From Candidatus Marinacidobacterales bacterium (GTDB lineage Bacteria > Acidobacteriota > Vicinamibacteria > Marinacidobacterales > SMYC01), in the NCBI GenBank assembly GCA_965237955.1, contig OZ250169.1, positions 5,408,001 through 5,472,000 of the forward strand: 64,000 nucleotides of DNA, read 5' to 3'. Below the pieces are notes generated by a model, which was not told the DNA's origin, did not search any database, and saw only the letters and a list, made by a program, of their open reading frames with translations. Positions 20,565-60,922 of this stretch are shown piece by piece. The position numbers and the translations under genes were made by a program. Positions within the stretch are counted from its first letter, which is position 1, and each line of letters begins with the position of its first letter.

Positions 20565-23532
20565 TGTCAACGCCGGCCGAAAACTGCGCATTCATGGCGG
20601 ATGAAAATTGCACACCCGAGCCATGGGTGGCGAACCCTATGACGCCGTCGCCTCCGTGTATTTCCTATGAGATTTAGCCGGCGGGTGAGGTTCGTCCGAA
20701 CCCGCCGGATGGAGCGCTCGCCACAGTTCGGAGTGCTCTCTCATGCGGTAACTGTTTCCTCGGATGTTGACGAGGTGGCAGTGGTGCAGAATGCGGTCGA
20801 TGAGAGCGGCGGCCATGACTTCGTCGCCAAGGATCTCGCCCCATTCCTCGAAACTTTTGTTAGAGGTGAGCACGGTCGAAGCGCGCTCGTATCGCCTACT
20901 TATGAGCTGGAAAAAAAGCACCGCGCCGGTCTGGGTGACGGGTAGGTATCCGATTTCATCGACAACAAGCAGTGACGGATAACTGAGAACCGCGAGTCGA
21001 CGAGTGAGGCGGCCCGCGTCACGAGCCTCTTCGAGGGAGGTGATGAGCTCAGCCAGGGTGCCGTAATAGACGCGCCGTCCATTCTGGGCAGCGGCGATGG
21101 CAAGATGAGTTTTGCCCACACCAGTAGGTCCCAATAAGACGACGTTCTCCTTACGTTCAACGAACCCGAGCTCGTGAAGGTTCTCAATCTGCTCGCGTTT
21201 GATCGATGGCTGGAACGAAAAATCGAACTCATCGATTGTTTTGACCGCGGGGAGTCGTGAGGAGCGCATCGCCGCTTGGAGACGACGGTTGTTTCTCAAC
21301 GTGATCTGCGCTCCAAGAAGGTTCTCGATGGCCTCCGCCGTTGTGACCGCACCGCCATCGGCATCAGATAGTACGCGGTCGACAGCTTTGAGCGCGCCAG
21401 GCATCTTTAGGTCGGCCAGCATCGTACGGATCTGCTCACGTCGCGATATTGTGCTCGCCTTCATTGTCCACCTCCAACGAGCCGCGTGTAGACTTCGAGG
21501 GGACGATGCTCGACATCCATCGAAGGCAGTGTGGTTAAGCAGGCTTTTGGAGTTCTTCTCGCGGGTTGGTTTGGCAGTACAAGAGAGCGATATGGCCGCT
21601 CAACGGGATGTGTCCCGAGGTCCGTGGAAAAAGAACGGCGCCCTCCACTCCGTCATCAGAGTATCATATCAGGCGGCAACCTCCGTGTGTTCGAGAACCT
21701 CGCTCAGACGTTGGTAGCCGTCGATGCGTCGTAGTTGAATCTGGCCAGAGGCGATAAGCCCAAACAGCAAAGCGACCGCGGACTCCTCGCTGGAGAACGA
21801 CGCTTGGGTTTTCGTCCGGCGTCGAAACTCGCGGTTGAGATTCTCCAGAGCATTGGTCGTTCGAATCGATTTCCACATGGCACGAGGGAATTCGTAGAAG
21901 GTCAGCAGCTGATTACCGGCCTCCTCTAGGCTTCGGACGACGGCTGGTGCGAGAGGCGTCCACTTGGCGACGAGCTCGTCATAGGCTTTGCGAGCATCGA
22001 TCCCGTTCTTGGCGTAGACGATCCGGTTGTAGTCACGCCGGAGCTCACGGCGTGCGTGCGCCGGGCAATGTTCGAGCAAGTTGGCGCGCTTGTGCTCGGT
22101 ACATCGCTGCAACCGGCACCCCGGCCACTTCTCCAGCGCTTTCGTCAGCCCCTTGTGGCCGTCGCTGATCACTAGCTTGGGAGCCCGGAGTCCTCGAGCC
22201 TGGAGTCCCTCCAGCACGGAGCCCCAATGCGTCGAGGCTTCGCTCACCGCCAGACGCAATGACAACAGACGTTTCTGCCCGTCTGGCGCGACCCCGAGCG
22301 CGACCAGTACGGGTACGCTGATCACACGTTTCGCCATCCGCACTTTCAGGTGGAAGCCGTCCAGGTAAACGATCGCGTAGACCTCCTCGCTGAGAGCACG
22401 GTTCTGCCATTCCTCGAAGCGCTCCTTCAGCCGGCTAACCACGCGAGACACCGCGCTCTTCGATAGGTGCTCCTCACCGAGCAGTGGTTTCAGCGCTTTG
22501 CGGATCCGGCGGCTATTCGCGCCCGACAAGTACGTCCCCAAGATCGCCTCGTCGACCTCACGAGTCCGGCGCGCGTACCGGGGCAACAGCTCGCTCCTGA
22601 ACTCTGTCGTCTCTCCCGTTTCCTCGTCTCGCACGCGGGCTCGTGGCACCCGGAGCTCGCGAGTTCCCACCGACGTCGTCACGCGACGGGTTTCGGCTCC
22701 GTTGCGATATCCACGGCGGTCTTCCGCACGCTCGTAGCTACCACACCCCAGCGCTTGGTTGACTTCTTCCTCGAGCACGACCTCGATTGCCTCCAGTACC
22801 CGCTTACGCAGCCGAAGTTGGACGAACTCCCGGTACTCGCTTACAGACTCCTTCGATATGGTGGTAGGCTTCTTCATGGCGTAATCCTCCTCCTCGCCTT
22901 TCCAGGCGCGGTTTCGTTTTGTTTAACCGGAGGTTACGCCATTCTTATTTCCACGGGAAGCGGGACGGATCCGCTCAACGAGCGGTCTCAGAGTGGCCCT
23001 TTCATCGCGCGCGAATCGTTCTATCGGTCGTTCCTTGGTTGTGCGATGGAGTCGGACGTTGGCGACGTCACTCAGCCAACGCTCGAGCTGAGCATCGAGG
23101 TCGTCATCGTTGATAAAGTGGCGACCGTAGAAGAAGCTTCCTCTCACATAGCGGATTGGCCTTTCCACTTTGCCCTTGGTCTTCGCCCGATACGGGCGAC
23201 ACGCTCTTGTTCGAAACTCCCAGTGGTGGGCGAAGCGGACGAACTCTGGGTTCTCAACGAGAGGGCCACCTTCCCGGCGGTGATCCTCGACGATGACCGA
23301 ACACATCTGGTCAAAAAGGAGCTCTTTGGGAACTCCTCCCAAAAATGCTTCTTGATTCCCTGCTCCAAATACTCTCGTAGTAACACTCGTTTCTCCCTTC
23401 CGTACATCGGCGCCTCCACTCCGGAAACGCCATTCTGATTGAAGGCGCGCCGTCATGTCTGGCACTCCAGACACACGACAACGGCCTCCTTTTACGGATG
23501 GCCGAGTGTGCAATTTACGCCCGCCGCTAACA
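20565..23532 (-). mobile_element. IS21-family element A (istA broken, istB 20637..21464), with nested IS256
   Basis: Ends TGTCAACGCCGGCCG and rc TGTTAGCGGCGGGCG; 6-bp TSD CGATCG at 20559-20564 and 23533-23538; istB GPTGVGKT, VDEIGY; istA KTKGKVERPIRY. Confidence 0.9.
21606..22972 (-). mobile_element. IS256-family type A, copy 1 (1367 bp; transposase 21669..22877) inserted in istA
   Basis: Ends GGATCCGTCCCG / rc GGATGTGTCCCG; TSD GCTCAACG at 21598-21605 and 22973-22980; YLDG, SDGHKGL, QRCTEH, TTNALE. Confidence 0.95.
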
Positions 23533-27205: not shown

Positions 27206-29938
27206 GGCACTTGTCAATAATGTTGTGTCCGCGGGCATCATTCTGCCTCGAATCGGGTCTCGAACATGGCGTTGAATTGGTCGAGCGCGCCCTTGACGGT
27301 TGCGGTGACTCGGTGCCATTTGCCGGATTCGAGGGAGGTGACGACAATGCCGAGTTTAAGTTTCGCGGTCTCCTCGGAATGGAAGTATCCACCGCTGTTA
27401 CGACGCAGAATCTCGAGTTGTTTGTTGATGGCTTCGACGGCGTTGGTCGTTGACAGAGAACGTCGTACGCCGTCGGGGTATTTGAGAAAGGCGATGTAGT
27501 GCGGTTGTTTCTTTCGTAGCTCCTTGACGAAGGAGGGGGAGGATTTTTCGAAGCGGTCACAAAGCTCTTCGAATTGAGAAGCGGCGACTTCGGCGCTCCA
27601 AGCGGTTTTGATGGAGCGGAACCTCTTGGTGAACTCAGAGGCGTCCTGCTTGCTGAGATGAGTTTTGGCGTTCCGGAGCATGTGAACGGTACACAGCTGG
27701 ATATCGGAGTTGGGAAACATTCCCTTGGTGACGCCGAGCAAACCCGAGAAGTCGTCGTGGATGACGATCATGACGCGTCTGAGGCCCCGTTCAACGAGAG
27801 AGCGAAGGACAGTTTTCCAACCCTCGAGGTTTTCTGGATCCGTCCCGCTTCCCGTGGAAATAAGAATGGCGTAACCTCCGGTTAAACAAAACGAAACCGC
27901 GCCTGGAAAGGCGAGGAGGAGGATTACGCCATGAAGAAGCCTACCACCATATCGAAGGAGTCTGTAAGCGAGTACCGGGAGTTCGTCCAACTTCGGCTGC
28001 GTAAGCGGGTACTGGAGGCAATCGAGGTCGTGCTCGAGGAAGAAGTCAACCAAGCGCTGGGGTGTGGTAGCTACGAGCGTGCGGAAGACCGCCGTGGATA
28101 TCGCAACGGAGCCGAAACCCGTCGCGTGACGACGTCGGTGGGAACTCGCGAGCTCCGGGTGCCACGAGCCCGCGTGCGAGACGAGGAAACGGGAGAAACG
28201 ACAGAGTTCAGGAGCGAGCTGTTGCCCCGGTACGCGCGCCGGACTCGTGAGGTCGACGAGGCGATCTTGGGGACGTACTTGTCGGGCGCGAATAGCCGCC
28301 GGATCCGCAAAGCGCTGAAACCACTGCTCGGTGAGGAGCACCTATCGAAGAGCGCGGTGTCTCGCGTGGTTAGCCGGCTGAAGGAGCGCTTCGAGGAATG
28401 GCAGAACCGTGCTCTCAGCGAGGAGGTCTACGCGATCGTTTACCTGGACGGCTTCCACCTGAAAGTGCGGATGGCGAAACGTGTGATCAGCGTACCCGTA
28501 CTGGTCGCGCTCGGGGTCGCGCCAGACGGGCAGAAACGTCTGTTGTCATTGCGTCTGGCGGTGAGCGAAGCCTCGACGCATTGGGGCTCCGTGCTGGAGG
28601 GACTCCAGGCTCGAGGACTCCGGGCTCCCAAGCTAGTGATCAGCGACGGCCACAAGGGGCTGACGAAGGCGCTCGAGAAGTGGCCGGGGTGCCGGTTGCA
28701 GCGATGTACCGAGCACAAGCGCGCCAACTTGCTCGAACATTGCCCGGCGCACGCACGCCGTGAGCTCCGGCGTGACTACAACCGGATCGTCTACGCCAAG
28801 AACGGGATCGATGCTCGCAAAGCCTATGACGAGCTCGTCGCCAAGTGGACGCCTCTCGCACCAGCCGTCGTCCGAAGCCTAGAGGAGGCCGGTAATCAGC
28901 TGCTGACCTTCTACGAATTCCCTCGTGCCATGTGGAAATCGATTCGAACGACCAATGCTCTGGAGAATCTCAACCGCGAGTTTCGACGCCGGACGAAAAC
29001 CCAAGCGTCGTTCTCCAGCGAGGAGTCCGCGGTCGCTTTGCTGTTTGGGCTTATCGCCTCTGGCCAGATTCAACTACGACGCATCGACGGCTACCAACGT
29101 CTGAGCGAGGTTCTCGAACACACGGAGGTTGCCGCCTGATATGATACTCTGATGACGGAGTGGAGGGCGCCGTTCTTTTTCCACGGACCTCGGGACACAT
29201 CCTGTTTTCTCGTTGGTGTTTTATGAAACAGCCCAGGACTTTCTTTCTGCCGTCGCGGTGCAGGCCGGTAACGAGGTAGATACAAGCAGGCCGAAGACGC
29301 TCGTCTTCTTTGATTTCGACATACTTACCATCGAAGAAGATGGCGAGCATGTCGGGGTCGATGGGTCGTGAGTTGACGAGCTCGAGCTCCTCGATGAAGC
29401 CCGAGGCGACGGTGTCAAGCTCATCGGGGGAGGCGTTGACGCCCATCTTTCTGAGCGCTGTTTTCGCGGCGTTTACAGAGCGAGAGGAGCAAAGCACTCC
29501 GAAGAGAAGGGACTGGACCTCGTCGGAGTATCCGCGCTCGTAGGCCGGAGGGAGTGAGTTCGGTCGAAACTGACCACTGCGCGTTCTGGGCACGCGGGTG
29601 TCGACGGGGATGGAGCCGACATTCAACGAGCGGTCATAGCCTCCGTTACCTTTGTCGCCGGTGGCCTCGGCAAGGTAAGCGTGGCGCTCGGCTTGCCCCG
29701 CGGCGGAGAGCATCATTCCCAAGAGCTCTCGAACGCTGAAGTTCTCGAGGCCGGCGCTGAGTAGGCGGTCGATTTCGTTGTCGAGAGACTCGGAGAGCGA
29801 ATTTTGTGATACGTTGGTTTTGGGATCTGAAGGCATTGCTTGTTCCTTTCAAGTAAACGGGTCCTTGCCCCAGGGCGGCTACCCTGGGGCTTTTCATTTT
29901 CCTCGCGCTCGCGAGGCGCTTCACGCAGTGTATCTCCG
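27206..29938 (-). mobile_element. IS256-family type C (transposase 29836 to 27238), split by type A copy 2
   Basis: End GGCACTTGTCAATAA at 27206; halves join as ...KHQREN/LEGWKTVL..., HDDFSG, QLCTVH, TTNAVE. Confidence 0.85.
27836..29202 (+). mobile_element. IS256-family type A, copy 2 (transposase 27931..29139)
   Basis: Same ends as copy 1; TSD GGTTTTCT / TGTTTTCT (7 of 8 match). Confidence 0.95.
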
Positions 29939-37007: not shown

Positions 37008-37308
37008 AAACTTAGGAAATTAGATCCCGGTCGCTGCCTGGTGAACGGGCGGAATTGCGCCCGACGGTGTGCGGACGGGGGTTTTCGGTGCGCGGGTATG
37101 GGGATACAAGCGGCCGGTGCGGCATTGAGCCTAGGACAAAGTGTAGCGAGGGTGGTTCGGGCGCACGGGTCTCATCGAAAGACCCCTGAATGGTGCCAAC
37201 CGCTATGCCCGCGGCAGGGAGTCCGGCGGAATAGGAGGGTCCTTGTTATTACGATTTTCGAGATGGTTCAAGATCTGGCGGATGACGGAGGGCTCGGTCG
37301 ATTAGGTT

Positions 37309-39411
37309 TCATAATGCCCCCTTTCCTACAATCCAGGAATTGTGAGAGTTTTTGTTGTCGCGAGGGGTTGTTCGCGGACGGTAGTCCTTCGAAGCCTGCA
37401 CGGCCTGTTTGACTTGTGGTTCGTCGAGGTCGCTACGGCGGATACTCCACGGGACCGATGGCGCGGCCTGAAGGGCAGGCAAGATGCCGCGGCCGATGAT
37501 ACGCCGCACGGTCATGGTGCAGACGCCGAGAATGCTTGCCGCCTCGTTGAGAGTGAGCACCTCGCTCGGCTTGTCGTCGGACCGGTCCAGTGCGGGGAGG
37601 TTGTGGTAGGAACGGTAGGCCCGTACACGGCCCGCGTTCCAGGTTAGCCCCGTGCTCGTGTGGATGCTAATCCGGTTGAGAGTCAAGGCGATGTCGTCAT
37701 CGGAGAAGCGTCCCGCCAACTGCTCCATGATTTTCGAAGTCTTCTCGGCGCCAACGCGGCGATGTCCCGTGGTGTTCTTCCGGACTCGGCGCGTCGAGTG
37801 GATACCGCCCCTCCAGTGAATGACGGCTTCGATGGTGTCGCCGGCCTCGTTGACGTCGGCAACGATCTCCTCGACGAGCGTGCGCACGATGCGCTTTTTG
37901 AGGCGCATGTCCGTCGAAGGATCCTCCCATACCCTCGCGAAGTCTGAGCCCAACGTGAGCAGCTCCTCGGGATCAATCGCGCGCTGGGGTGATGGAGTTT
38001 GCTCCTGCTCGCGAAGACGCTCCTCAAGCGAGCGCACACGCAAAAGCGTCTCGTTCCAGCGCCGCTCGAGCTCACCCGTTACCAGCCGATTCTCAGGGTC
38101 GGAGGCGTCGTACTGGCGGAAGTTCCGCTCGGCCTGGTAGCGCGCCTGCTCCAGCTCCAACTCCACCGCCTGAAGATGCTCGTCCCTATCCTCGACCGCC
38201 ATTCGCCCTGCCGCGACCGCGGCTTCGATCGCGCCTGGCTCCAGCACCTTGAGGACCTCTTCCTCTACCGCTCGCTCCAGGCCGTTTCCACGAAAACCCA
38301 GACAGCTACGCTCGCCGTATTGGGCGACGGCACTCCGACATCGATACAAAGCGACGCCCTGTTTGCCGGAGTAATGCACGTGGAGCTTGCGCCCGCAACG
38401 GCCGCACCGAAGTAGCCCCGCAAGTAGGGCCCCGCCTTGTCGGGGCGCGCCCCTGACCATCCGCCCTTTCATGTTGGCATTCTCCTCCAAGAGCTTCTGA
38501 TTCCGCTCGTATTCCTCCCATGTGATGTAACCAGGATGATGGTCCTTGATCAAGACGGTCCACTCCGAGCGCGGCTTGTGATGACCGCGCGTGACATGGG
38601 CACGCTCGTCCACGATACTCGTGCGCGAACTCGTCCGGCCAAAGGCGTAGGCACCAGCATAGATGGGGTTGTTCAACATGTTCAACACCGTCGTGTAGCT
38701 CGGCAACGCCCAAGCAATCTCCGCATCCAAGCGGCGGCCACGGCGCTTGGGAAGCGCTATCTGCTGTTGACGCAGCCAGAACAAGCTCTGGCGCGCGCTT
38801 CCCAGCTCGCGGAACTTCGCGAACACCATGTCGAGGGCTTGTTGGATGCGCAGGTCAGGCCTCTTCTCGAGCGCGCCCTCTGCTGTCCACTGGAAGCCTA
38901 CCGGTACGAGGAATCGCAGCTCGCCTCTGACCGCCTTCTGATGCCTCGCCTCGAACGAGCGTTGACGAAACAGCGTCAACTCGTACTCGCTCATCGTGCC
39001 CTTGAGGCCGAGCAACAGTCGGTCGTTGCTAAAGCGCGGGTCGTAGATGCCCTCGGGGTCGATGAGCAACGTTCCCACCAAGCCACACAGATCGATCAGG
39101 TGATGCCAGTCGCGGTTGTTGCGGGCCAGGCGTGACGCCTCCAAGCACAAGACAGCTCCCACTGCGCTCAGAGAGACCTGGGCGACCAGTCTCTGGAACC
39201 CGGTTCGTCCAGCAAGAGTGGAACCCGAGCGGCCTAGGTCCTCATCGATCAGTTCCACGTCACCGAAGCCCAAGCTGCCTGCGTGCTCGACGAGCGCATA
39301 CTGCCGACGCTGGGACTCCAGGTTCTCGCGGACTTGTGTCGCGGTCGACTGCCTGACATAGACGATGGCTTTACGCGCGAGATGCTCAGACGTGATCTTG
39401 GCGCTCATCAT
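37309..39411 (-). CDS. Large serine recombinase (resolvase, recombinase, Zn ribbon, coiled coil, C-terminal excisionase-like HTH)
   Basis: YVRQST catalytic Ser, EASRLARN, NPIYAG, HHPGYI, CGRCG, LTLNEAASILGVCTMTVRR. Confidence 0.95.
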   Translation of the reverse strand: MMSAKITSEHLARKAIVYVRQSTATQVRENLESQRRQYALVEHAGSLGFGDVELIDEDLGRSGSTLAGRTGFQRLVAQVSLSAVGAVLCLEASRLARNNRDWHHLIDLCGLVGTLLIDPEGIYDPRFSNDRLLLGLKGTMSEYELTLFRQRSFEARHQKAVRGELRFLVPVGFQWTAEGALEKRPDLRIQQALDMVFAKFRELGSARQSLFWLRQQQIALPKRRGRRLDAEIAWALPSYTTVLNMLNNPIYAGAYAFGRTSSRTSIVDERAHVTRGHHKPRSEWTVLIKDHHPGYITWEEYERNQKLLEENANMKGRMVRGAPRQGGALLAGLLRCGRCGRKLHVHYSGKQGVALYRCRSAVAQYGERSCLGFRGNGLERAVEEEVLKVLEPGAIEAAVAAGRMAVEDRDEHLQAVELELEQARYQAERNFRQYDASDPENRLVTGELERRWNETLLRVRSLEERLREQEQTPSPQRAIDPEELLTLGSDFARVWEDPSTDMRLKKRIVRTLVEEIVADVNEAGDTIEAVIHWRGGIHSTRRVRKNTTGHRRVGAEKTSKIMEQLAGRFSDDDIALTLNRISIHTSTGLTWNAGRVRAYRSYHNLPALDRSDDKPSEVLTLNEAASILGVCTMTVRRIIGRGILPALQAAPSVPWSIRRSDLDEPQVKQAVQASKDYRPRTTPRDNKNSHNSWIVGKGAL

Positions 39412-39571
39412 CGCTCACCTCGCTTTCGCTCTTCGTCACTTCGGCGCGCCGAGCTGCTTCGAGCAGTAGCTGCTGCATCAACTGACGCAGTGTCTCCCGC
39501 GAGGATGTCAGAAGCTCGTTCCAGCGCGGGCGGTCGCTTTCGAACAGACACCCCTGTATCGGTCGTTTCAT
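39386..39571 (-). CDS. Small overlapping ORF (61 aa) of the recombinase element
   Basis: Strong SD AAGGAGGT before ATG 39571; PRWNELL...LMQQLLLEA helix. Confidence 0.55.
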   Translation of the reverse strand: MKRPIQGCLFESDRPRWNELLTSSRETLRQLMQQLLLEAARRAEVTKSESEVSDDERQDHV

Positions 39572-39870
39572 CAGAAGGCACCTCCTTTTGGTGCCCTCTG
39601 GATAACACGGCTCGCAGAAGTTTCCCCATCTCCGACAGTGCCTCCATCGACGCCTGAGGCGAGCTCGCTAACGACAGTCCCGCGCAGTGCACCGCGTCCG
39701 TCATCCACGCCGGCACCGGAACAGGTGTCCCCTCCCGCGAGATGCACTGGTAATACGCCACGCCGCCGTGTCGCTGCACACTGCTCACGCTCAGGCACTG
39801 GCCGCAACGCGGGTGCCAGCGGTAGTGGACCGTTACTGAACCCTGTTCACGTGCAGTATGTGACTGGGTT
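39408..39870 (-). CDS. Accessory ORF (Y4bD/Y4pK, DUF5372-like); start codon supplied only in the excised attP circle (159 aa)
   Basis: Open frame up to the att core: QSHTA...VHYRWHPRCG...VPAWMTD; no ATG/GTG/TTG before 39788 in the integrated state. Confidence 0.7.
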
Positions 39871-41002
39871 GGTGATGAACGAGACGACGCGCATTCGGCC
39901 GCGGCAGTTTTTGCAAATCAACGGGTCGGTTTTGAACACACGGCGGATCAAGTTGGCCCATCGTCGGCGAAGGGTTTTACGCTGAGTGGCGTTGAGCTCG
40001 TTGTCGTCAGGTGCAGGTCGTTTCTTTCGGGTATGTTTTCTTGTTCGTCGGGCGTAGTGACCGTAGTACAAGATCGAATGCTGGTTGGGCTGGAAATCGT
40101 CCGCATTCGGGCTGCTTCGAGGGAATCAGATGTTGCGGGGCTGCTTCGAAGGACCCCTACCGCAAAAATGTGGATGAGCACGCGGGCGAGGAACTCGAGC
40201 GGGTCGAGGAGCTCGGCTTTTCTATTTTTTGATTTGGGCTGATAGAGAACGTAGTTGCTCTTTTTGTCGTAACGGAGTCTTTGTAGGGAGACGGGGCATC
40301 GGACGATGTAGCGAGAAAGGGATTCAAGGGCTTGGGTATCGGAGGGATATAGGTAGACATCATTATCGGTGCTAAAGCCGCTCCTGCGCCACGAACGGAG
40401 AATCTTGATGCGTTCGTCCGAGAGAAGGTCGTGTACTTGAAGAAGTCGAAAGATCTTCTCCCGAAACAGAATTTCCGCGGCGTGGGTGTCGATGTAGGGA
40501 ACAGGAATCCACTGTCCGTCGTCACGCCAGACGCCTCTGGAGACGATGGAGTGCAGATGTGGATTCCACTTCAAGTTGTCGGAGAAGGTCTGTATCGAGG
40601 CGACCATGCCGACGCGAACGTTGCTGTCCTCGACAGCAGCGGCCATGAGCTCGTGGACGGTTTCGTAGCCTGCGCGGGCGAGCTCGGTGAGGAGCTCTCG
40701 GTGGAAGAGAAAGTAGGGGCGGAGCATTTCGGGAATGGAAAAACTCCAGACGGCATGGCCGACGTCTTGCAAAAGCTCCTCTTGAAGAAAAGCTGCGAAG
40801 GCCGCGGCTCTTTTGGCGTCGCATGACGGACAAAGACTCCTGGCTTTGCACGAGAAGCAAGTAAGAATTCACTCCGGCAATCCTCGCAAACGATCCGGGC
40901 GAAACCTCCTTCTGGAACCCCGCAGTCAAAGTACCGTAGCACCACGTTGTCGACGAACCCGCGCCAATACCCATACACTTTTTCGAAGCGGTCCTCCCAG
41001 TG

Positions 41003-43945
41003 TGCGTATTCCAGCCATCGTGAACGCCGAATCCAGAGCAAGCTGAACAGCGAATCCGGTGAAGCCGAACGCTCATCGAAGCGATGAAGTGTTGGGTGAC
41101 CTCCTTCCCACTGATTGAAAACGTGAACCTATCTTACCTGCGTGTTGTGTAGCAAGGGGCGGCAGGTCGGTGCCGGAGGGAGCGGGCGTAAGGAAAGACG
41201 CGAAGCGACCTTCCCGCTCCCGTAGGCAGCGACCTGCCGCGGCCGAACCCCGGGCGATGTGGGGCTGGTTTCGGGGGGTTGCTGGGGTATGGCCTGGCTC
41301 GAGAAGACGCTTCCTGAGGCATTCTCGCGCGTCGTTTTGGCGCCGCATCGTCTGGTACCCCGGGTTTGGCGGTTTCACCCGTTTTTATCGCATCGACGCT
41401 GTGGTCCCTCGCTCGCTCATGCATCGGCGTTGTCAAATGCCTTTGGCGCAGCCTTGGTCTTTCTCAGAGAAGCTCCTTTGAGAGTGATGCGGTGCGCGCT
41501 GTGGAGAATGCGATCGCAGATAGCGTCTGCCTGGTTTGGGTCGCCAATCGCTTCGTGCCACTGCTTGAGCGGAATCTGGGTCGCGATGAGTGTGGAGCCA
41601 CGCTCGGCGCGGTCTTCGATGACCTCCATTAGATCCCGTCTCTCCGATTCTTTCAGCGGGTGAAGCAGCCAATCATCGATAGCCAGTAAGTCCAGCTTGG
41701 CGAGTTTCGTCAAAAGCCGGGCGTAGGAACCATCACCACGAGCGACCGCGAGCTCGTGGAGCAAGCGCGGTGCTCGCACGTAGCATCCGGTGAAGCCGCG
41801 ACGACAGGCCCGCTCCACGAAGGCGCAAGCCAAGAACGATTTGCCAATCCCCGTCGGGCCGGTGATGAGCAGGTTATGGCGCTCACCGACAAAGCGGCAG
41901 TTGCCCAGGCTCAAGATCTGTTCGCGGTTTAAGCCTCGAGGCGCTTGGAAGTTCACGTTCTCCAAACATGCCGGATAGCGGAGCTTTGCCGCTCGCAGTC
42001 GTCGAGAAAGCTTACGCTGTTCGCGGGCGGTCCACTCGGCATCGACCAGGAGTCCCACACGTTCCTCGAAGCTCAGCTCCTTGTATTCGCTCGAGCTCAA
42101 CTGGGTTTCGAACGCGGACACCAAGCCGAACAACTTCATGGCGTTTATCTTTTCTATCGTTTCGGGTGTCAGCATCGGGACTCTCCTCCTTCGTAGTGAT
42201 CCGCGCCTCGGATGTTCTCGTGCTCCTCTCGCGGTTTCGCTTCGGCGTCCGATTCGAGCACCACACGATCCAGACCAGCCGAGAGAATGTTTTTCACCGT
42301 GCGATAGCTGTAAGAGCTCAAAGCTTCCGCTCGTGCGCAAGCGGCCTCGAGACGCTCACTGCCCCAGCGGCTGCCTAGTCGCATGACTCCCAGGCAAGAG
42401 CGAAATCCCTGCTCCGGGTGAGGCCGACTCTCTAGAATCCCCGCAACCAGCCTTCCCGTGGCGCGACCTGACTGCTCCGCCCAGTGGAGCAGCCGCGACG
42501 GCGTCCACTCCAGGTGCTCCCGATGCGAACGTGGCATATGCTCCGGGTTCGTGGAGTAGTGCCCCTTTCCTTTCTTGCGGGGATGCGACGCGACGCGCTT
42601 TCCCTTGAACAGGACCTCCACCACCGAGGCCGTCACCCGTGCCTCGACTTTCTCGTGAATGAGCTGATAGGGAACGCTGTACAAGTTGTTCTCCACCTCC
42701 ACGTGGTAGTCGATGTTCACTCTGCACCGCTTCCACGTCGATAACTCGTAGCTCTCCTGCGGTAGCGGTTTCAGTACGGGCCGGTCTAGCCTTTCGTACA
42801 ACTCCCGCCGACTCACACCGAGCTTCTGCATCGGACGCGCATTCAGGACCTCTAACTTCTCCCAGATGGCTTCGTTCAGTTCCGCCAGGCTGAAGAACGT
42901 GCGATGACGAAGCACCGCCAGGATCCAGCGCTGCGCCACCTGCACTGCCGACTCCACCTTCGCTTTGTCTTTCGGCTTGAACACCCGAGCCGGGACCACA
43001 ACCGCACCGTAATGCGTCGCCAGCTCTTCGTACGTCCGGTTGATCCCTGGCTCGTAACGGTCCACCAAATCCACGCCGCTCTTCAAGTTGTCCGGAACCC
43101 AGATCTCCGTACTGCCACCGAAGTAATCCGACATCCCCTTATGGGCCTTCGCCCACGATTCCAGCGACTGGTTCAGTGTCGCTTCGACGTAGGTGTAACT
43201 GCTCGCGCCCAACGTCCCGACGAACAGCTCCATTTCGACGAGCTCTCCCGTTTTCGGATCGACGATGTGAGGCTTCTTCCCCGAAAAATCGACGAATGTC
43301 TTCTCGCCTGCTCGATGCCGTTGACGCATCGTCGGGTTCAGCTTCTTCTTCCACTGACCGTACAGCTCGCAATAACGGCTGTAGCCGTACGCTCCCGGCT
43401 TATTCTCCGCGTACTCCACCCACAGCTGCAGCAACGTCAGCTCTCGGTGACGCCTCAGCTCCTCGTGGATGTGGGCATAGTCCAGACCCGGCCGTGCGCC
43501 AGACGAGCCCGGCGGCGGAAACAGCCCTGCCTCCAGCTCCCCGCCGCTCAGCTCCTCCGGGAGCGGCCAGCTCAGACCACCCTTCTTCGCCTTGGCCAGG
43601 TACTCACTCACCGTTCCAACCGCCACGCGAAGTGCCTTTGCGATCATGCGGTGAGTAAAACCCAGCTCGTACTTTAACCTTAGAACCTCTCGTATTTTTC
43701 TCATCGATAACCTCTTAGCTGCCATTTCCTAGATCGTCCTCCTTCCGGGTACGACCTAGAGTTGCCTTGAAACGTGCTATCGATGAGCGTTCGCGATGCC
43801 GGAACCGGCGTTCACGTTGCCTGGAATCCGTGTTCACCTTCCCCGGAATCGATGTTCACGATCCCCGGAATCCGTGTTCACGATGCTTTGGAATGGATGT
43901 TCACCTTCGGCTGGAATCTGCGTTCACGATGCCCCGGAATACGCA
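41003..43945 (-). mobile_element. IS21-family element C (istA 42169..43725, istB 41417..42175)
   Basis: Ends TGCGTATTCCAG and rc TGCGTATTCCGG; VDFSG, PDNLKSG, KDKAKVE; GPTGIGKS, IDDW; flanks show no TSD. Confidence 0.93.
43781..43945. repeat. Seven tandem 22-23-bp subterminal repeats (GTTCAC..N..GGAAT) at the IS21 end
   Basis: Units read directly; 3-4 inverted counterparts at 41003-41080. Confidence 0.85.
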
Positions 43946-43969: not shown

Positions 43970-45398
43970 GAGGATATCCTGAATCTAGTTGAAATCGGTG
44001 AGTGACTCCCTTCAAGATCGTCGGTGTCAAAGCTGACGATCAAAAAGAAAGGAGCCACCCGGTGAGAGCAGATACGAAGAAGAGAAAGAATGCAACACAG
44101 ATGCTGAGGGCGACGCAGGAGCAAGAGTGGTGGGCGGATCAAGTTGTGCATGTGATGCTGGAGGGCAAGCGAGCGCTGGACGCCGCGATGCTCGATGTCG
44201 GACGCCTGGTAGCTGAGACGCTCATGTACATGGAGCGCGAAGAGAGATCTGGGCCAGACTACCATCCTACGTCGTCCGGGCTTCGCAAATGGGCGAGTCA
44301 ACGTGGGTCGATCTATGTCGGTGACCAGAAGCTCCCTGTCGAGCACCCTCGATTGCGGGGCCCGGAGGGTGAGGTCGGGCTGAGAACCTACGAGCAGCTC
44401 AAGAATCGCGGGGGCTTTTCGGAGGAACTCCTGTCGGAGGTGCTTCGGGGAATGTCTGCTCGCAAGTACGAAGAGACGGTGACGGCGGCAGGCAAGGCTT
44501 TCGGTGTGACGCCGAGCTCGGTGTCCCGCCATCTGGTCGAGGCGACGGCGAAGCAGCTGAAGCAGTTCCAGGAGCGCAGTCTCGAAGAGTTTCCGCTCTT
44601 CGCGATGTACCTAGACACGGTCCACCGCGGCGGTCAGGCGTTCGTGGTCGCGCTCGGCGTGGACCGTGAAGGGAAAAAGCTCCCCCTGGGCTTCTGGGAA
44701 GGGGCGACGGAGAACCACGAGATCTGCGAGGAATTGCTGGAAGAGTTGGAGCGACGGGGGTTAAAGCTCTCCAAACGGATCCTCTGGGTAACCGATGGTG
44801 GCGGGGGGATCATCAAGGCGCTCAAAGACCGATACGGCAAGAAGCTCATCCACCAGCGGTGTACTTTGCACAAAGACCGCAACATCCAGCGCCACCTGCC
44901 CAAACGCTACCGCAAGCAGGCACACCACCTCTTCGCGACTGCCTTGGAGCAGAACAGCTACAAGGACGCGAAGAAGATGTTGCAGGAGTTCGAGCGCTGG
45001 CTTCGCGACATCAACGAGTCGGCGGCAGACTCACTCCTCGAGGCACTCGAGGAGGTGCTGATGCTCCACAAGTTGAAGGTCCCCGCTCTACTGCGCCAGA
45101 GCCTGCACTCGACGAATCCTATAGAGAGTATGTTCTCCATGGTTCGTAGTTGCGAGCGCAACATCAAACGCTACCGTAACAGCAAAATGCGCCAGCGATG
45201 GCTCGCCGCTGTGCTGCTGCACTGCGAACAACAGTTCAGACGAGTCAAGGGGCACGCATCCATCGACGTAGTGGTTGCGGCCATCGATGCGATCCAACGA
45301 GAGGACGAGATGCCTGAGGCCGCGTAAGGTCAGGGGCGTAGAGCTGGAAATGACCACGAGTCGCTTATGATGGTTTCAACTAATTCCTTGACATCCTC
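43970..45398 (+). mobile_element. IS256-family type D, intact (transposase ends at 45327)
   Basis: Ends GAGGATATCCTGAAT / rc GAGGATGTCAAGGAAT; TSD GGGTGCTT at 43962-69 and 45399-406; GATEN, TDGGGG, QRCTLHK, STNPIES. Confidence 0.95.
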
Positions 45399-45963: not shown

Positions 45964-48800
45964 GGGGATGTCCCGCCGGATGTTGAATTTGGGGTAGCGG
46001 CGGCTCCTTGGCCGGCCTAAGAATAGGTCTGCCAATAAACGGTCTCCAGAGGGGGACAAGGAGCCACCAGTGCCTAGGAAATCAAAGAAGCCAGTAAGAA
46101 AGCAAACGCACTCGCCTACGGGCAAGGTAGTTGGCCAAGTCGGTCAGATACTGCTACCGATGATAGCTGGGATCGCGGCCACGAAGGCGGATCTGACGGA
46201 ATGGGTGTATGAGCAAGGACTGACAGCTCTGCACCTACTGCTCAGAGAGGACGCCGAGGGAGATCGCGGGGCTCAAGGGCAAGCACGAGAAGGAGCGAAC
46301 TCATAACCACTGGGGGAGCACGAACGGAGAGCTGAGCTTCGGTGGTCGTCGCATCCAAGTGTCGCGACCTCGAGTTCGCTCGAAGTCGGGCGAGGAGGCG
46401 TCGCTTCCACACTTCGAAGCCTTCCGCGAAGAAGACCCGCTTCCAGAGCGAGTGTTGAATCAGATCTTGGTGGGGGTATCGACCCGAAATTACGAATCGA
46501 GTCTGGACAAACCCGCGGCCAAGTTGAAGTCTCGTGGCACGAGTAAGAGTGCCGCCAGCCGTCACCTCGTGAGCCAGACGACTAAGAAGCTCGAGGAATA
46601 CCTGTCTCGGCGGCTAGAGGAGTTCGAGCTTGCGGCACTGATGCTGGATGGCCTTGAGGTGGCCGGACAGACCGTCGTCGTAACTCTCGGTATCACAATA
46701 GATGGAACGAAGGTGCCCCTGGGTATATGGCTGGGCTCGACGGAGAACTCTCGGGTGTGCACCGCGATGTTGCAGGACCTTCTCGAGCGAGGCTTGCGCG
46801 TCGATGCGTCGATTCTCTGCGTAGTGGACGGAGGCAAAGGCATCCGCAAGGCACTCGTCGACGTTTTTGGGGACCTCGCGGTCATCCAAAGGTGCCAGAT
46901 CCATAAACTCCGAAATCTTCGCTCGTACCTTCCCAGAGTCTCGTCACGCCTACGTGCTCCAGACGATGAAGGAAGCCTACAAGTGCAAGAGTGCCGACAA
47001 GGCGCGCAAGCGACTTCAGGCATTGGTGTCGTGGCTCGAGCGAAACGGCTACGACGAAGCTGCCGGAAGCCTTCGTGAAGGGATGGAAGAGACACTCACG
47101 GTCGTGAAGCTCGCGCTGCCCGCCTTACTTCGCCAGTCTCTTGCCACGACGAACGCCATTGAGAATCTCAACGGAACCATTCGCAGAGTATCGAGAAACG
47201 TCAAGCGTTGGAAGAGTCCTTCCATGGTTCGCCGATGGACCGCTCTTGGCGTCGTCACCGCGCAGAAAGAGTTCCGGCGTATCAAAGGCTATCGCCATAT
47301 GGGCGCTCTCGTTCACGCGCTTAGAAGCAAACAGAAATCTCTTGACAGCGATGAGTTTGCTGGATCCGTCCCGCTTCCCGTGGAAATAAGAATGGCGTAA
47401 CCTCCGGTTAAACAAAACGAAACCGCGCCTGGAAAGGCGAGGAGGAGGATTACGCCATGAAGAAGCCTACCACCATATCGAAGGAGTCTGTAAGCGAGTA
47501 CCGGGAGTTCGTCCAACTTCGGCTGCGTAAGCGGGTACTGGAGGCAATCGAGGTCGTGCTCGAGGAAGAAGTCAACCAAGCGCTGGGGTGTGGTAGCTAC
47601 GAGCGTGCGGAAGACCGCCGTGGATATCGCAACGGAGCCGAAACCCGTCGCGTGACGACGTCGGTGGGAACTCGCGAGCTCCGGGTGCCACGAGCCCGCG
47701 TGCGAGACGAGGAAACGGGAGAAACGACAGAGTTCAGGAGCGAGCTGTTGCCCCGGTACGCGCGCCGGACTCGTGAGGTCGACGAGGCGATCTTGGGGAC
47801 GTACTTCTCGGGCGCGAATAGCCGCCGGATCCGCAAAGCGCTGAAACCACTGCTCGGTGAGGAGCACCTATCGAAGAGCGCGGTGTCTCGCGTGGTTAGC
47901 CGGCTGAAGGAGCGCTTCGAGGAATGGCAGAACCGTGCTCTCAGCGAGGAGGTCTACGCGATCGTTTACCTGGACGGCTTCCACCTGAAAGTGCGGATGG
48001 CGAAGCGTGTGATCAGCGTACCCGTACTGGCCGCGCTCGGGGTCACGCCAGACGGGCAGAAACGTCTGTTGTCATTGCGTCTGGCGGTGAGCGAAGCCTC
48101 GACGCATTGGGGCTCCGTGCTGGAGGGACTCCAGGCTCGAGGACTCCGGGCTCCCAAGCTAGTGATCAGCGACGGCCACAAGGGGCTGACGAAAGCGCTG
48201 GAGAAGTGGCCGGGGTGCCGGTTGCAGCGATGTACCGAGCACAAGCGCGCCAACTTGCTCGAACATTGCCCGGCGCACGCACGCCGTGAGCTCCGGCGTG
48301 ACTACAACCGGATCGTCTACGCCAAGAACGGGATCGATGCTCGCAAAGCCTATGACGAGCTCGTCGCCAAGTGGACGCCTCTCGCGCCAGCCGTCGTCCG
48401 AAGCCTAGAGGAGGCCGGTAATCAGCTGCTGACCTTCTACGAATTCCCTCGTGCCATGTGGAAATCGATTCGAACGACCAATGCTCTGGAGAATCTCAAC
48501 CGCGAGTTTCGACGCCGGACGAAAACCCAAGCGTCGTTCTCCAGCGAGGAGTCCGCGGTCGCTTTGCTGTTTGGGCTTATCGCCTCTGGCCAGATTCAAC
48601 TACGACGCATCGACGGCTACCAACGTCTGAGCGAGGTTCTCGAACACACGGAGGTTGCCGCCTGATATGATACTCTGATGACGGAGTGGAGGGCGCCGTT
48701 CTTTTTCCACGGACCTCGGGACACATCCAGTTTGCTGCCTAAGAGTATTCACAGGTGCCGCCGCTACCCGACCAAATTCAACAGCGGCCGGGACATCCCC
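45964..48800 (+). mobile_element. IS256-family type E, frameshifted, with nested type A copy 3
   Basis: Ends GGGGATGTCCCG / CGGGACATCCCC; TSD TATTGATC at 45956-63 and 48801-08. Confidence 0.92.
47362..48728 (+). mobile_element. IS256-family type A, copy 3 (transposase 47457..48665)
   Basis: TSD AGTTTGCT at 47354-61 and 48729-36. Confidence 0.95.
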
Positions 48801-58926: not shown

Positions 58927-60922
58927 GAGTCGATCCGATCGGACAGCAACTGAGAGTTCGACCGCTCGGTACGGAGAATCCCTACGCCGTCGTTGTCGGC
59001 GTCGTCGGCCACGTGCGGCTTCACGACCTCACGAGACCACTCTTGCCGCAAATCTACAGGCCTCTCTCCCCGGGCCTCAACTACAAGCGTAGCCCTGCGA
59101 ACGACCGGAGATCCGAAATCCCTGGCGCCTCTGGTTCGCGACGAGATCAAGACAATGAGCCCCGGTGCGGCGATCCAAGACATGCTTCTGATGGAGGAGC
59201 TCGTCTCGAAAGCCGGATCTGTCCCGGGTTCCGTGGAAATAAGAATGGCGTAACCTCCGGTTAACCAAAATCAAAACCGCGCCTGAAAAGGCGAGGAGGA
59301 GGATTACGCCATGAAGAAGCCTACCACCATATCCAAGGAGTCTGTAAGCGAGTACCGGGAGTTCGTCCAGCTTCGGTTGCGCAAGCGGGTACTGGAGGCG
59401 ATCGAGGTTGTGCTCGAGGAGGAAGTGGACCAAGCGCTGGGTTGTGTTAGCTACGAGCGTTCGGAAGGACGCCGTGGTTATCGCAACGGCGCCGAGACCC
59501 GCCGCGTGACGACATCGGTGGGAACACGCGAGCTGCGAGTGCCACGAGCCCGTGTGCGAGACGAGGAAACGGGAGAGACGACGGAGTTCAAAAGCGAGCT
59601 GTTGCCCCGGTACGCGCGCCGCACTCGTGAGGTCGACGAGGTGATCTTGGGGACATACTTGTCGGGCGCGAACAGCCGTCGGATCCGCAGGGCGCTGAAA
59701 CCGCTGCTTGGTGAAGAGCACTTATCGAAAAGCGCGGTGTCTCGCGTGGTTAGCCGACTAAAAGAGCGCTTCGAAGAATGGCAGAGCCGTGACCTGAAGT
59801 CTACGCGATCGTTTACCTGGACGGCTTCCACCTGAAGGTGCGGATGGCGAAGCGTGTGATCAGCGTGCCTGTGCTGGCAGCGCTCGGGGTCTCGCCAGAC
59901 GGGCAGAAACGTCTGTTGTCGTTGCGTCTGGCAGTGAGCGAATCCTCGACGCATTGGGGCTCCGCGCTGGAAGGACTCCAGGCCCGAGGACTACGGGCTC
60001 CCAAGCTGGTGATCAGCGACGGCCACAAGGGGCTGACGAAGGCGCTCGAGAAGTGGCCGGAGTGCCGGTTGCAGCGATGTACGGAGCACAAGCGCGCCAA
60101 CTTGCTCGAACATTGCCCGGCGCACGCACGCCGCGAGCTCCGGCGTGACTACAACCGGATTGTCTACAGCAAAAACGGTATCGATGCTCGCAAAGCCTAT
60201 GACAAGCTCGTCGCCAAGTGGACGCCTCTCGCGCCGGCCGTCGTCCGAAGCCTAGAGGAGGCCGGCAATCAGCTGCTGACCTTCTACGAATTCCCTCGTG
60301 CCATGTGGAAATCGATTCGCACGACCAATGCTCTGGAGAATCTCAACCGCGAGTTTCGACGCCGGACGAAAACCCAAGCGTCGTTCTCCAGTGAGGAGTC
60401 CGCGGTCGCTTTGCTGTTTGGGCTTATCGCCTCTGGCCAGATTCAACTACGACGCATCGACGGCTACCAACGTCTGAGCGAGGTTCTCGAACACGCGGAG
60501 GTTGCCGCTTGATCTGATACCCTGATGACGGAGTCGAGGTGCGCTGTTCTTTTTCCACGGACCTCGGGACACATCCCGAAAGCCCGTGCCCAAGCGCGGC
60601 TGAGCCTCGTATTGATGATCGCGTTCGGAGTCTTCGCCGTCGTGCTCGCTTCGGTGGGTCTGTTCGGTGTGATCCCTACGCTGTGAGCACCCGCAAGGTC
60701 GAGCTTGGAATCCGCATAGCGCTCGGCGCGAGCTCGGCCGTCATTCGAAAGGGAATCTCGCCGAAGGCGGGCGTCTCGTTCTCACCGGCATCCCGCTCGG
60801 TTTCCTGGGGGCGGCGGTGCTCGCGCATTTGATGGGAGGCCTGTTACGGAGTCGCTCCCGTCGACCCCATCACCTACGCGTCTGTTGCTTTGACGCTCGG
60901 CGCCGTGGCGCTCGCCGGCTGC
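58927..60922 (+). pseudogene. ADOP/MacB-FtsX ABC permease C-terminal remnant, split by IS256
   Basis: DPIGQQLR, VVGVVGHVR, VLASVGLFGV, ELGIRIALGA, VDPITYAS. Confidence 0.75.
59215..60576 (+). mobile_element. IS256-family type A, copy 4 (diverged, frameshifted near 59795)
   Basis: TSD CGAAAGCC at 59207-14 and 60577-84; 7-bp deletion relative to the other copies. Confidence 0.92.

Follow-up and report, generated by a model that had tools for sequence, protein, structure and literature searches.

Here, we describe a small mobile element in a 64,000-nt stretch of DNA from Candidatus Marinacidobacterales bacterium (contig OZ250169.1, positions 5,408,001 to 5,472,000), referred to below as the window. 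The element interrupts an IS91-like transposase gene and encodes a large serine recombinase (LSR) and two small proteins, which we call OrfA and OrfB. An original prediction, made from the letters of the window, had proposed a base-resolved attP/attB pair for an LSR with relaxed, transposon-like and probably multi-target integration. The features are as follows, in window coordinates:

37012 to 37019, minus strand: conserved motif, likely the 3' end of the host element; many hosts, both empty and occupied, have it about 265 to 305 nt past the crossover

37203 to 37296, minus strand: what remains of the host transposase gene at its 3' end, some 30 codons with the stop

37281 to 37319, minus strand: junction downstream of the LSR (attR on the LSR strand), with the element arm at 37306-37319, core GT at 37297-37298 and then host

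37297 to 39873, minus strand: whole element, 2,575 bp plus a duplicated 2-bp core, without cargo; relatives share the end bases

37299 to 37327, minus strand: far arm with the OrfA ribosome-binding site (37317-37327) and ATG (37310-37312), in frame only when the ends are joined

37309 to 39411, minus strand: LSR, 700 amino acids, with Resolvase, Recombinase, Zn_ribbon_recom and a C-terminal HTH_17; Y18-V-R-Q-S22 intact

39386 to 39571, minus strand: OrfB, 61 amino acids, with its own ribosome-binding site and a stop inside the LSR 5' end; predicted binder of the LSR coiled-coil base

39408 to 39871, minus strand: OrfA body, DUF5372-like, with an HYxWHP motif and an SH3/KOW-like model; no ATG before the motif, stop overlapping the LSR ATG

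39851 to 39890, minus strand: junction upstream of the LSR (attL on the LSR strand), with host, core GT at 39872-39873 and the element arm at 39851-39864

39874 to 41001, minus strand: 5' portion of the interrupted IS91-like (Y2) transposase gene; it contains frameshifts and, at 40094-40166, a 73-bp insert, and an IS21 element from about 41002 truncates its 5' end

On the plus strand, host sequence gives way to the element at GT 37297-37298 and the element to the host at GT 39872-39873, with 2,575 bp between. Both junctions share three nucleotides, GGT; in a close relative (L136) one junction reads AC-C and the other AC-T, and because this third base differs, the core is AC on the LSR strand (GT on the plus strand) rather than GG. 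The 14-bp arms at 37306-37319 and 39851-39864 share 10 of 14 bases. Joining the ends brings them to a spacing of 16 bp around a central GT; this 7+2+7 arrangement, a 2-bp core centred between inverted attP arms as in the LSR class, fits the crossover that had been predicted. The proposed att pair is genuine in that the quoted attP and attB are the rejoined halves of the two true junctions; as one contiguous string, the attP has no match in the window with up to three mismatches allowed. The rejoined attB restores the C-terminal frame of the IS91-like transposase gene, where the prediction had placed it. Two further descriptions held in part. An arm does overlap the last LSR codons (GAL*) in this copy, but the overlap is not conserved, as the LSRs of close relatives stop at 693-694 amino acids. 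The little resemblance claimed between attB and attP applies to the outer arms, whereas the inner P' and B' positions agree at +6 in 68 of 93 family pairs and at +4 in 52 of 93.

The LSR domains all score over the Pfam cut-off, and the structure model contains long helices at residues 392-471. Residues Y18, R20, S22, R94 and R97 are invariant across 53 LSR sequences. The LSR profile matches SPbeta YokA over 62-524, and the nearest solved structures are 9dxh and 9dxd (E-value 3e-10). Judged from its sequence, the protein has the domains, coiled coil and catalytic serine motif of a serine integrase, and the earlier view of the locus as an LSR unit stands. The LSR, OrfA and OrfB make up the entire coding content of the 2,575 bp, which they fill; no mobilisation module (relaxase, oriT) or cargo was found there. 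A sigma-70 scan of 37100-40000, a range that leaves the joined attP outside, gave one site against 0.7 expected.

The uninterrupted form of the target exists. Three paralogous sites in the source genome (G000) read straight across the insertion position, and the exact empty join from 37295 to 39871 occurs in Logan contigs of five of the eight public runs examined, from four studies. The short side of this join is 67 nt in runs X5, X6 and X7 and 24 nt in X2 and X3, which are one sample. These joins may come from paralogs rather than from this very locus. Three RNA or RNA-like runs contained less than 0.1 of the sequence words.

The host pieces match Pfam Y2_Tnp (E-value 4e-17), with a weak match to Zn_Tnp_IS91, and NCBIfam IS91 at 2e-25; the latter is under the family cut-off because the gene is in pieces. 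As read from those pieces, the host appears to be a member of the IS91 family, a Y2 HUH transposase with an N-terminal zinc domain. In all seven close loci, the host frame stops eight codons into the element. The insertion swaps the last 30 or so host codons for a seven-residue tail and a stop, probably damaging the host transposase. We also considered whether the element restores the host C-terminus, and ruled this out: the arm ATG is out of the host frame, and the host stops eight codons in at 7/7 loci. A conserved end-like motif follows the crossover at a distance of 265-305 nt; besides this host, 8 of 16 empty sites (by reading) and five of five occupied relatives have it. Its copy here, at 37012-37019, resembles IS91-family oriIS ends.

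The 73-bp insert in the host gene (40094-40166) recurs, identically placed, in at least three further IS91-like copies of the source genome and is missing from one, and a joint without it is present in public contigs; it is possibly a small mobile insert that shares IS91-like hosts. The IS21 element (istA/istB, window 41002-43945) that truncates the host 5' end has an end with more than 40 near-identical genome matches. The window is dense in insertion sequences (IS), with IS256/Mutator copies at 21602-22972, 27836-29206, 47362-48732, 59214-60578 and 44002-45327.

The choice of target was followed through relatives gathered from 100 related genomes, GTDB contigs (80 of 456), metagenomes (80 of at least 587) and viral contigs (1). 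Before counting, 14 loci were dropped as duplicates of the window or of other loci. We examined 15 related loci, of which 14 have an LSR 64-87% identical to this one and at least one visible end. In all 14, the junction falls at the same Thr codon of an F[IVL]-T-E motif in diverged IS91-like transposases, in one orientation. Ten of ten left junctions end the IS91-like C-terminus at F[IVL] followed by AC, and nine of ten right junctions continue T-[EQ]-[PQH]. Two loci, L136 and L137, share one flank, so the 14 represent at most 13 insertion events. At the fifteenth locus (L197, LSR 59% identical), no junction with the F[IVL]-T-E motif was found. The targets themselves vary considerably: their 24-nt flanks are 33-92% identical pairwise, and the host C-terminal peptides of different events are 38-76% identical. 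In a FastTree phylogeny of 55 of 162 LSRs, for which the tnpB-targeting sequences were thinned to one in four and the unlabelled ones omitted, the full-length close members group on a single branch (support 1.0).

A target matrix built from the relatives' flanks, without this locus, was scored on the 8.1-Mb source genome. It returned 19 empty sites at 25.5-50.4 bits, the next site scoring 16.6 and the element's own attB 41.3, and all 19 read as IS91-like C-termini or remnants thereof. Mapping other copies and deriving a motif, as the prediction had proposed, worked: relatives end at the same bases, and the F[IVL]-T-E matrix finds the 19 empty sites. The idea of relaxed, transposon-like targeting is not supported, given 14 of 14 close relatives at one codon of one motif in diverged IS91-like genes, and as far as the flanks can tell, targeting is a matter of motif-specific hits on a repeated gene. 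The term multi-target is half right. The LSR is multi-site, and the wider family hits many genes, but the close clade is motif-specific within one gene family; it is multi-site only because the motif recurs in the genome (19 empty sites and this one).

No second full copy was found in the source genome, only a 222-bp internal fragment of the LSR gene (C1:4097345-4097566), and a DNA search of 401 genomes of the phylum, the source genome included, gave weak partial matches in two others only. The 222-bp piece is 95% identical and lies between unrelated sequences. IS91-like remnants at C1:6010445, 7386977 and 7656524 break at or just after F-I-T into unrelated DNA, and are possibly rearrangement scars at this site.

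Our main reading, to which we give a probability of about 0.8, is that a 2.6-kb element without cargo occupies the Thr codon of F[IVL]-T-E near the 3' end of an IS91-like gene and was likely placed there by LSR-driven site-specific insertion. By analogy with known LSRs, the recombinase would excise the element at attL and attR into a circle, which would reinsert by attP and attB exchange with 2-nt overhangs. What the LSR would recognise is a degenerate motif some 40 bp long, kept conserved by the protein constraint on the host, and therefore any diverged IS91-like copy in the genome could serve.

The other two genes suggest how direction might be set. With the ends joined, a purine-rich ribosome-binding site and the arm ATG open a 159-amino-acid OrfA whose stop overlaps the LSR ATG. 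In 91 of 96 family pairs, the frame that the join opens at the arm ATG extends as far as the LSR start, and a ribosome-binding site is called in 92 of 96; both counts are partly built in, because the end-caller walked in frame from HYxWHP and preferred purine-rich right ends, and the match of the cores serves as the independent check. An ATG between the left arm and HYxWHP occurs in only 3 of 96 pairs, and in 7/7 close loci no host ATG feeds OrfA. OrfA itself scores under the cut-off for PF17342 (DUF5372; E-value 0.09), which 24 of 97 OrfA sequences of the element family match at 0.001 or better. Its model (predicted local distance difference test, pLDDT, 78) is a small SH3/KOW-like barrel with a helix. 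SH3/KOW barrels give the best VIA Z, 5.3 (root-mean-square deviation 2.0, 48 aligned); the fold is common and says nothing about function. OrfA has no PDB sequence match and no Foldseek match at an E-value of 0.001 or better.

Across the 121 loci that have a left end, 76 different OrfB equivalents were called; OrfB has no Pfam or NCBIfam match. Modelled in complex with LSR residues 300-680, it reaches an ipSAE of 0.76 against 0.00 for the best control; the mark used is reached by 116 of 157 solved complexes and by 2 of 215 mismatched pairs. At least 91% of contacts recur between runs, and the partner has a pLDDT of at least 69. The modelled interface (LSR 385-405, 479-512 and 531-540) is the base of the coiled coil, and known directionality factors have been modelled at the hinge between zinc domain and coiled coil, according to the available part of PMC11014563. 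The model supports binding and makes OrfB a candidate recombination directionality factor (RDF).

Taken together, OrfB, translatable when the element is integrated, is predicted to bind the coiled-coil base of the LSR as a directionality factor and to favour excision. OrfA would be a circle-specific product favouring integration, because its ribosome-binding site and ATG are gained only on joined ends; it could act directly, or through translation that covers the OrfB start and couples into the LSR. Since the element lies inside the host's presumed 3' end, it might also hitchhike when an intact transposase copy acts in trans.

Several points weigh against this account. No circle joint (39873 to 37297) is among the joints listed in the eight public runs, which are contigs in which rare forms drop out. 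Only 1 of 20 predicted sites in the source genome is occupied, by a single full copy. The host gene is also broken by frameshifts, the 73-bp insert and IS21, and in one close relative (L139) the core is TC and the right flank atypical. Besides the way in which the OrfA ends were called, translation of 36 of 96 OrfA bodies could begin, without the join, at an in-frame GTG or TTG that precedes the motif. The OrfB model may pass because of likeness to solved integrase-RDF complexes such as 9dxd, and hitchhiking on the host is speculative.

Those same GTG and TTG codons lend something to a different view of OrfA, in which the arm ATG is a by-product of arm symmetry, OrfA either starts internally or goes unexpressed, and OrfB, or the LSR on its own as with TnpX, sets the direction. 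The ATG is indeed part of a symmetric binding arm, lying opposite CAT. We nevertheless consider this unlikely. Across 97 OrfA bodies, His4, Ser5 and Tyr7, which sit beside the junction, vary little or not at all. No stop interrupts the eight codons spanning the join at any locus with both ends called, and the frame reaches the LSR start in 91/96. The first GTG in this copy lies downstream of HYRWHP.

The LSR has a large family of more distant relatives. A junction was called for 180 of 189 loci, and automatic labels placed 106 in IS66 tnpB (in both orientations), 16 in IS91-like genes and 58 in other or unassigned sequence. A Pfam check of 19 flanks confirmed tnpB in four of four and gave no informative match in five of the 19; other flanks were named as rve, IstB, DDE, DUF772, phage integrase, DNA ligase and kinase. 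On this evidence from flanks, the family overall inserts into a range of targets, for the most part other mobile elements, and certain sister lineages change target readily. Cores were compared in 96 unique two-ended pairs, 2 of 98 having been dropped as duplicate or N-containing. They are identical in 83 pairs, differ by one base in 12 and by two bases in 1; as a control, cores slid by 1-3 nt match in 3-28 of 96. The matched cores span 10 dinucleotide types, GA not among them, and for tnpB targets the core is mostly GG forward and CC reversed. Dependence on GT as such, which the prediction had anticipated, is therefore unlikely, and the requirement is likely to be a match between attP and attB with some leak.

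LSR relatives occur in 494 plasmid records, mostly rhizobial, annotated just as 'recombinase family protein', and 2,637 clusters at 50% score an E-value of 1e-30 or better to the LSR, not all of which need belong to this family. The viral contigs searched held one distant relative. A possible link to y4bA/NGRIS-4 of pNGR234a was confirmed neither by tblastn, which gave no match in 15-30 kb, nor by the annotation of 1-15.5 kb, and these names led to no relevant paper.

Some members of the family are of interest in their own right. The source genome contains a second family element (L037, C1:~319775-322409; 2.68 kb, LSR 43% identical), which is 99.4% identical to a copy in genome G013 and 99.5% to a partial copy in G012; right ends lie in rve_3 integrase-core genes, at the same H|Y codon. 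Distant elements of about 3.4 kb (35-39%) occur in seven copies in G048 (L118-L124) and three in G035 (L125-L127) with varied GC-rich flanks, and are better candidates for relaxed targeting. Two elements (L100 and L196) sit within the zinc-ribbon codons of another LSR of the same family. Others are in or beside Ser/Thr kinase genes (L128 and L129, both in G008), DNA ligase genes (L080, L177 and L183) and a tRNA-like sequence (L014), the last recognised by eye. A serine recombinase of about 560 amino acids, around 25% related, is multi-copy in the source genome (e.g. C1:2958649 and 7827735) and in related genomes too.

A bolder reading, which we offer tentatively and would not bet on, is that these elements form a widespread 'IS-in-IS' class that uses another element's protein motif as a DNA address, senses its circular state through OrfA and OrfB, and retargets through tolerance of core mismatches. 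On the circle, OrfA, built by the junction, would be translated across the start of OrfB and straight into the recombinase, so the circle would make LSR without the excision factor and so integrate; the integrated form would make OrfB and LSR and so excise. One-base core mismatches would let the core drift, and lineages would retarget, for example among IS66 tnpB in both orientations, IS91, IS21 istB and rve.

The wider family also supplies what can be said for a relaxed multi-target LSR transposon, whose copies would persist in IS91-like genes only since insertions there do no harm. Targets differ widely in DNA sequence; near-identical sister LSRs hit tnpB, DNA ligase, DDE transposases and another family LSR; one Paraburkholderia genome holds three identical copies, two in tnpB and one elsewhere; the 36% relative with seven copies in G048 has varied flanks; and 12 of 96 pairs show a one-base core mismatch. 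For the element described here this is nonetheless improbable. Survival bias does not single out one codon and one orientation in 14 of 14 loci, in genomes rich in other dispensable IS DNA, and DUF4368, a marker of the multi-targeting LSR clade, is not among the Pfam matches of this LSR.

A single ancient insertion into an ancestral IS91-like gene, after which host and passenger diverged together as a composite, would explain the identical position in all close relatives, the flank shared by L136 and L137 and the location within the host's presumed end, but it is very improbable: LSRs 84-88% identical sit in hosts 38-63% identical (over short C-terminal pieces), the host of an LSR with 64% identity shares 66% identity with the host here, this host is closer to empty paralogs of its own genome (37/42 nt) than to most occupied ones, and an interrupted transposase gene is not expected to diverge under protein constraint. 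Because host and LSR distances do not track, repeated insertion is favored over one inherited event.

On the site-specific reading, this is a mobile element specialised on invading another's transposase gene, and it would both curb and exploit IS91-like elements. The base-resolved att pair, the natural variants of the target (at most 13) and the 19 empty sites of a single genome make the LSR's reading of a degenerate coding target testable. OrfB is a nameable candidate directionality factor, the part missing for most mined LSRs, and the gene split across attP is a potential simple switch. As a tool, which the original prediction had in mind, the LSR would be more a motif-specific or landing-pad integrase than a semi-random one; it is a candidate only, and its target motif is a bacterial IS coding sequence. 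If the idea of state sensing and retargeting is true, the family would offer a natural library of related recombinases with mapped, different targets.

We found no description of the element family in the literature searched, most subscription papers being outside reach, and the available part of PMC12884075 does not mention transposases or insertion sequences. In behaviour, the element comes nearest to Tn4451-type LSR transposons and to serine-integrase elements that disrupt fixed sites in genes of integrative and conjugative elements. TnpX- and TndX-type LSRs are, at about 700 amino acids, similar in size to this one, and they too move their elements through 2-bp cores; the Tn4451 circle junction is said, from work by Lyras and Rood in 2000, to form a promoter for tnpX. 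The sequence likeness of TnpX to this LSR is limited to the catalytic domain (E-value 5e-6). Tn4451/Tn4453 (TnpX) and Tn5397 (TndX) integrate at GA sites with little specificity, do without an RDF and carry genes for mobilisation and resistance, as described in the portion of PMC5704250 available to us. In contrast, the element described here has an AC/GT core at one fixed codon, in a family whose cores vary, and has a candidate RDF, a junction that supplies a start codon and neither mobilisation module nor cargo.

The same portion of that review describes streptococcal and clostridial integrative mobilizable elements with serine integrases that integrate inside the conserved genes traG, maff2 and SNF2 helicase of integrative and conjugative elements (PMC5704250). 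So far as that account goes, they share with our element an LSR at a fixed site, the disruption of another mobile element's gene and very short direct repeats. It differs from them in its 2.6-kb size without relaxase, replication or cargo genes, in the gene split across attP, in targeting IS genes (here an IS91-like transposase) and in its non-Firmicute host.

Like the survey of Durrant et al. in 2022, we computed attP and attB, and there too diverse LSRs converge on one conserved coding site, in that case a prolyl isomerase, according to the parts of PMC10083194 at hand. In those parts, the multi-targeting clade carries DUF4368 in 63%, and multi-targeting means that one 90% LSR cluster hits more than three unrelated target gene clusters (at 50%) (PMC10083194). 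This LSR is without DUF4368. Few close members are within 90% of each other; in L141, L142 and L144 the LSRs are 89-94% identical and the hosts 70-76% alike. The close clade targets one gene family at one codon, and divergence might split such targets at 50% clustering. IS66 and IS91 do not appear in the main text of PMC10083194 or in the eight supplementary files searched, which contain one family-like protein (cluster8319, target genes NA) whose att sequences are without the searched arm motifs.

With the phage LSR-RDF pairs (SPbeta SprA/SprB, phiC31 Int/gp3 and A118 Int/Gp44), the element shares its domain order and a small partner protein whose model places it at the coiled-coil base. It is unlike them in lacking a phage context, in its extra C-terminal HTH_17 and in an OrfB without Pfam or NCBIfam match. 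The split gene has a parallel in the Tn4451 circle promoter and in mycobacteriophage BPs, where attP lies within a gene of the phage itself and the product depends on the integration state; in the available part of PMC4557955, integration trims the C-terminus of the repressor. Here, by contrast, integration removes the ribosome-binding site and start codon of OrfA.

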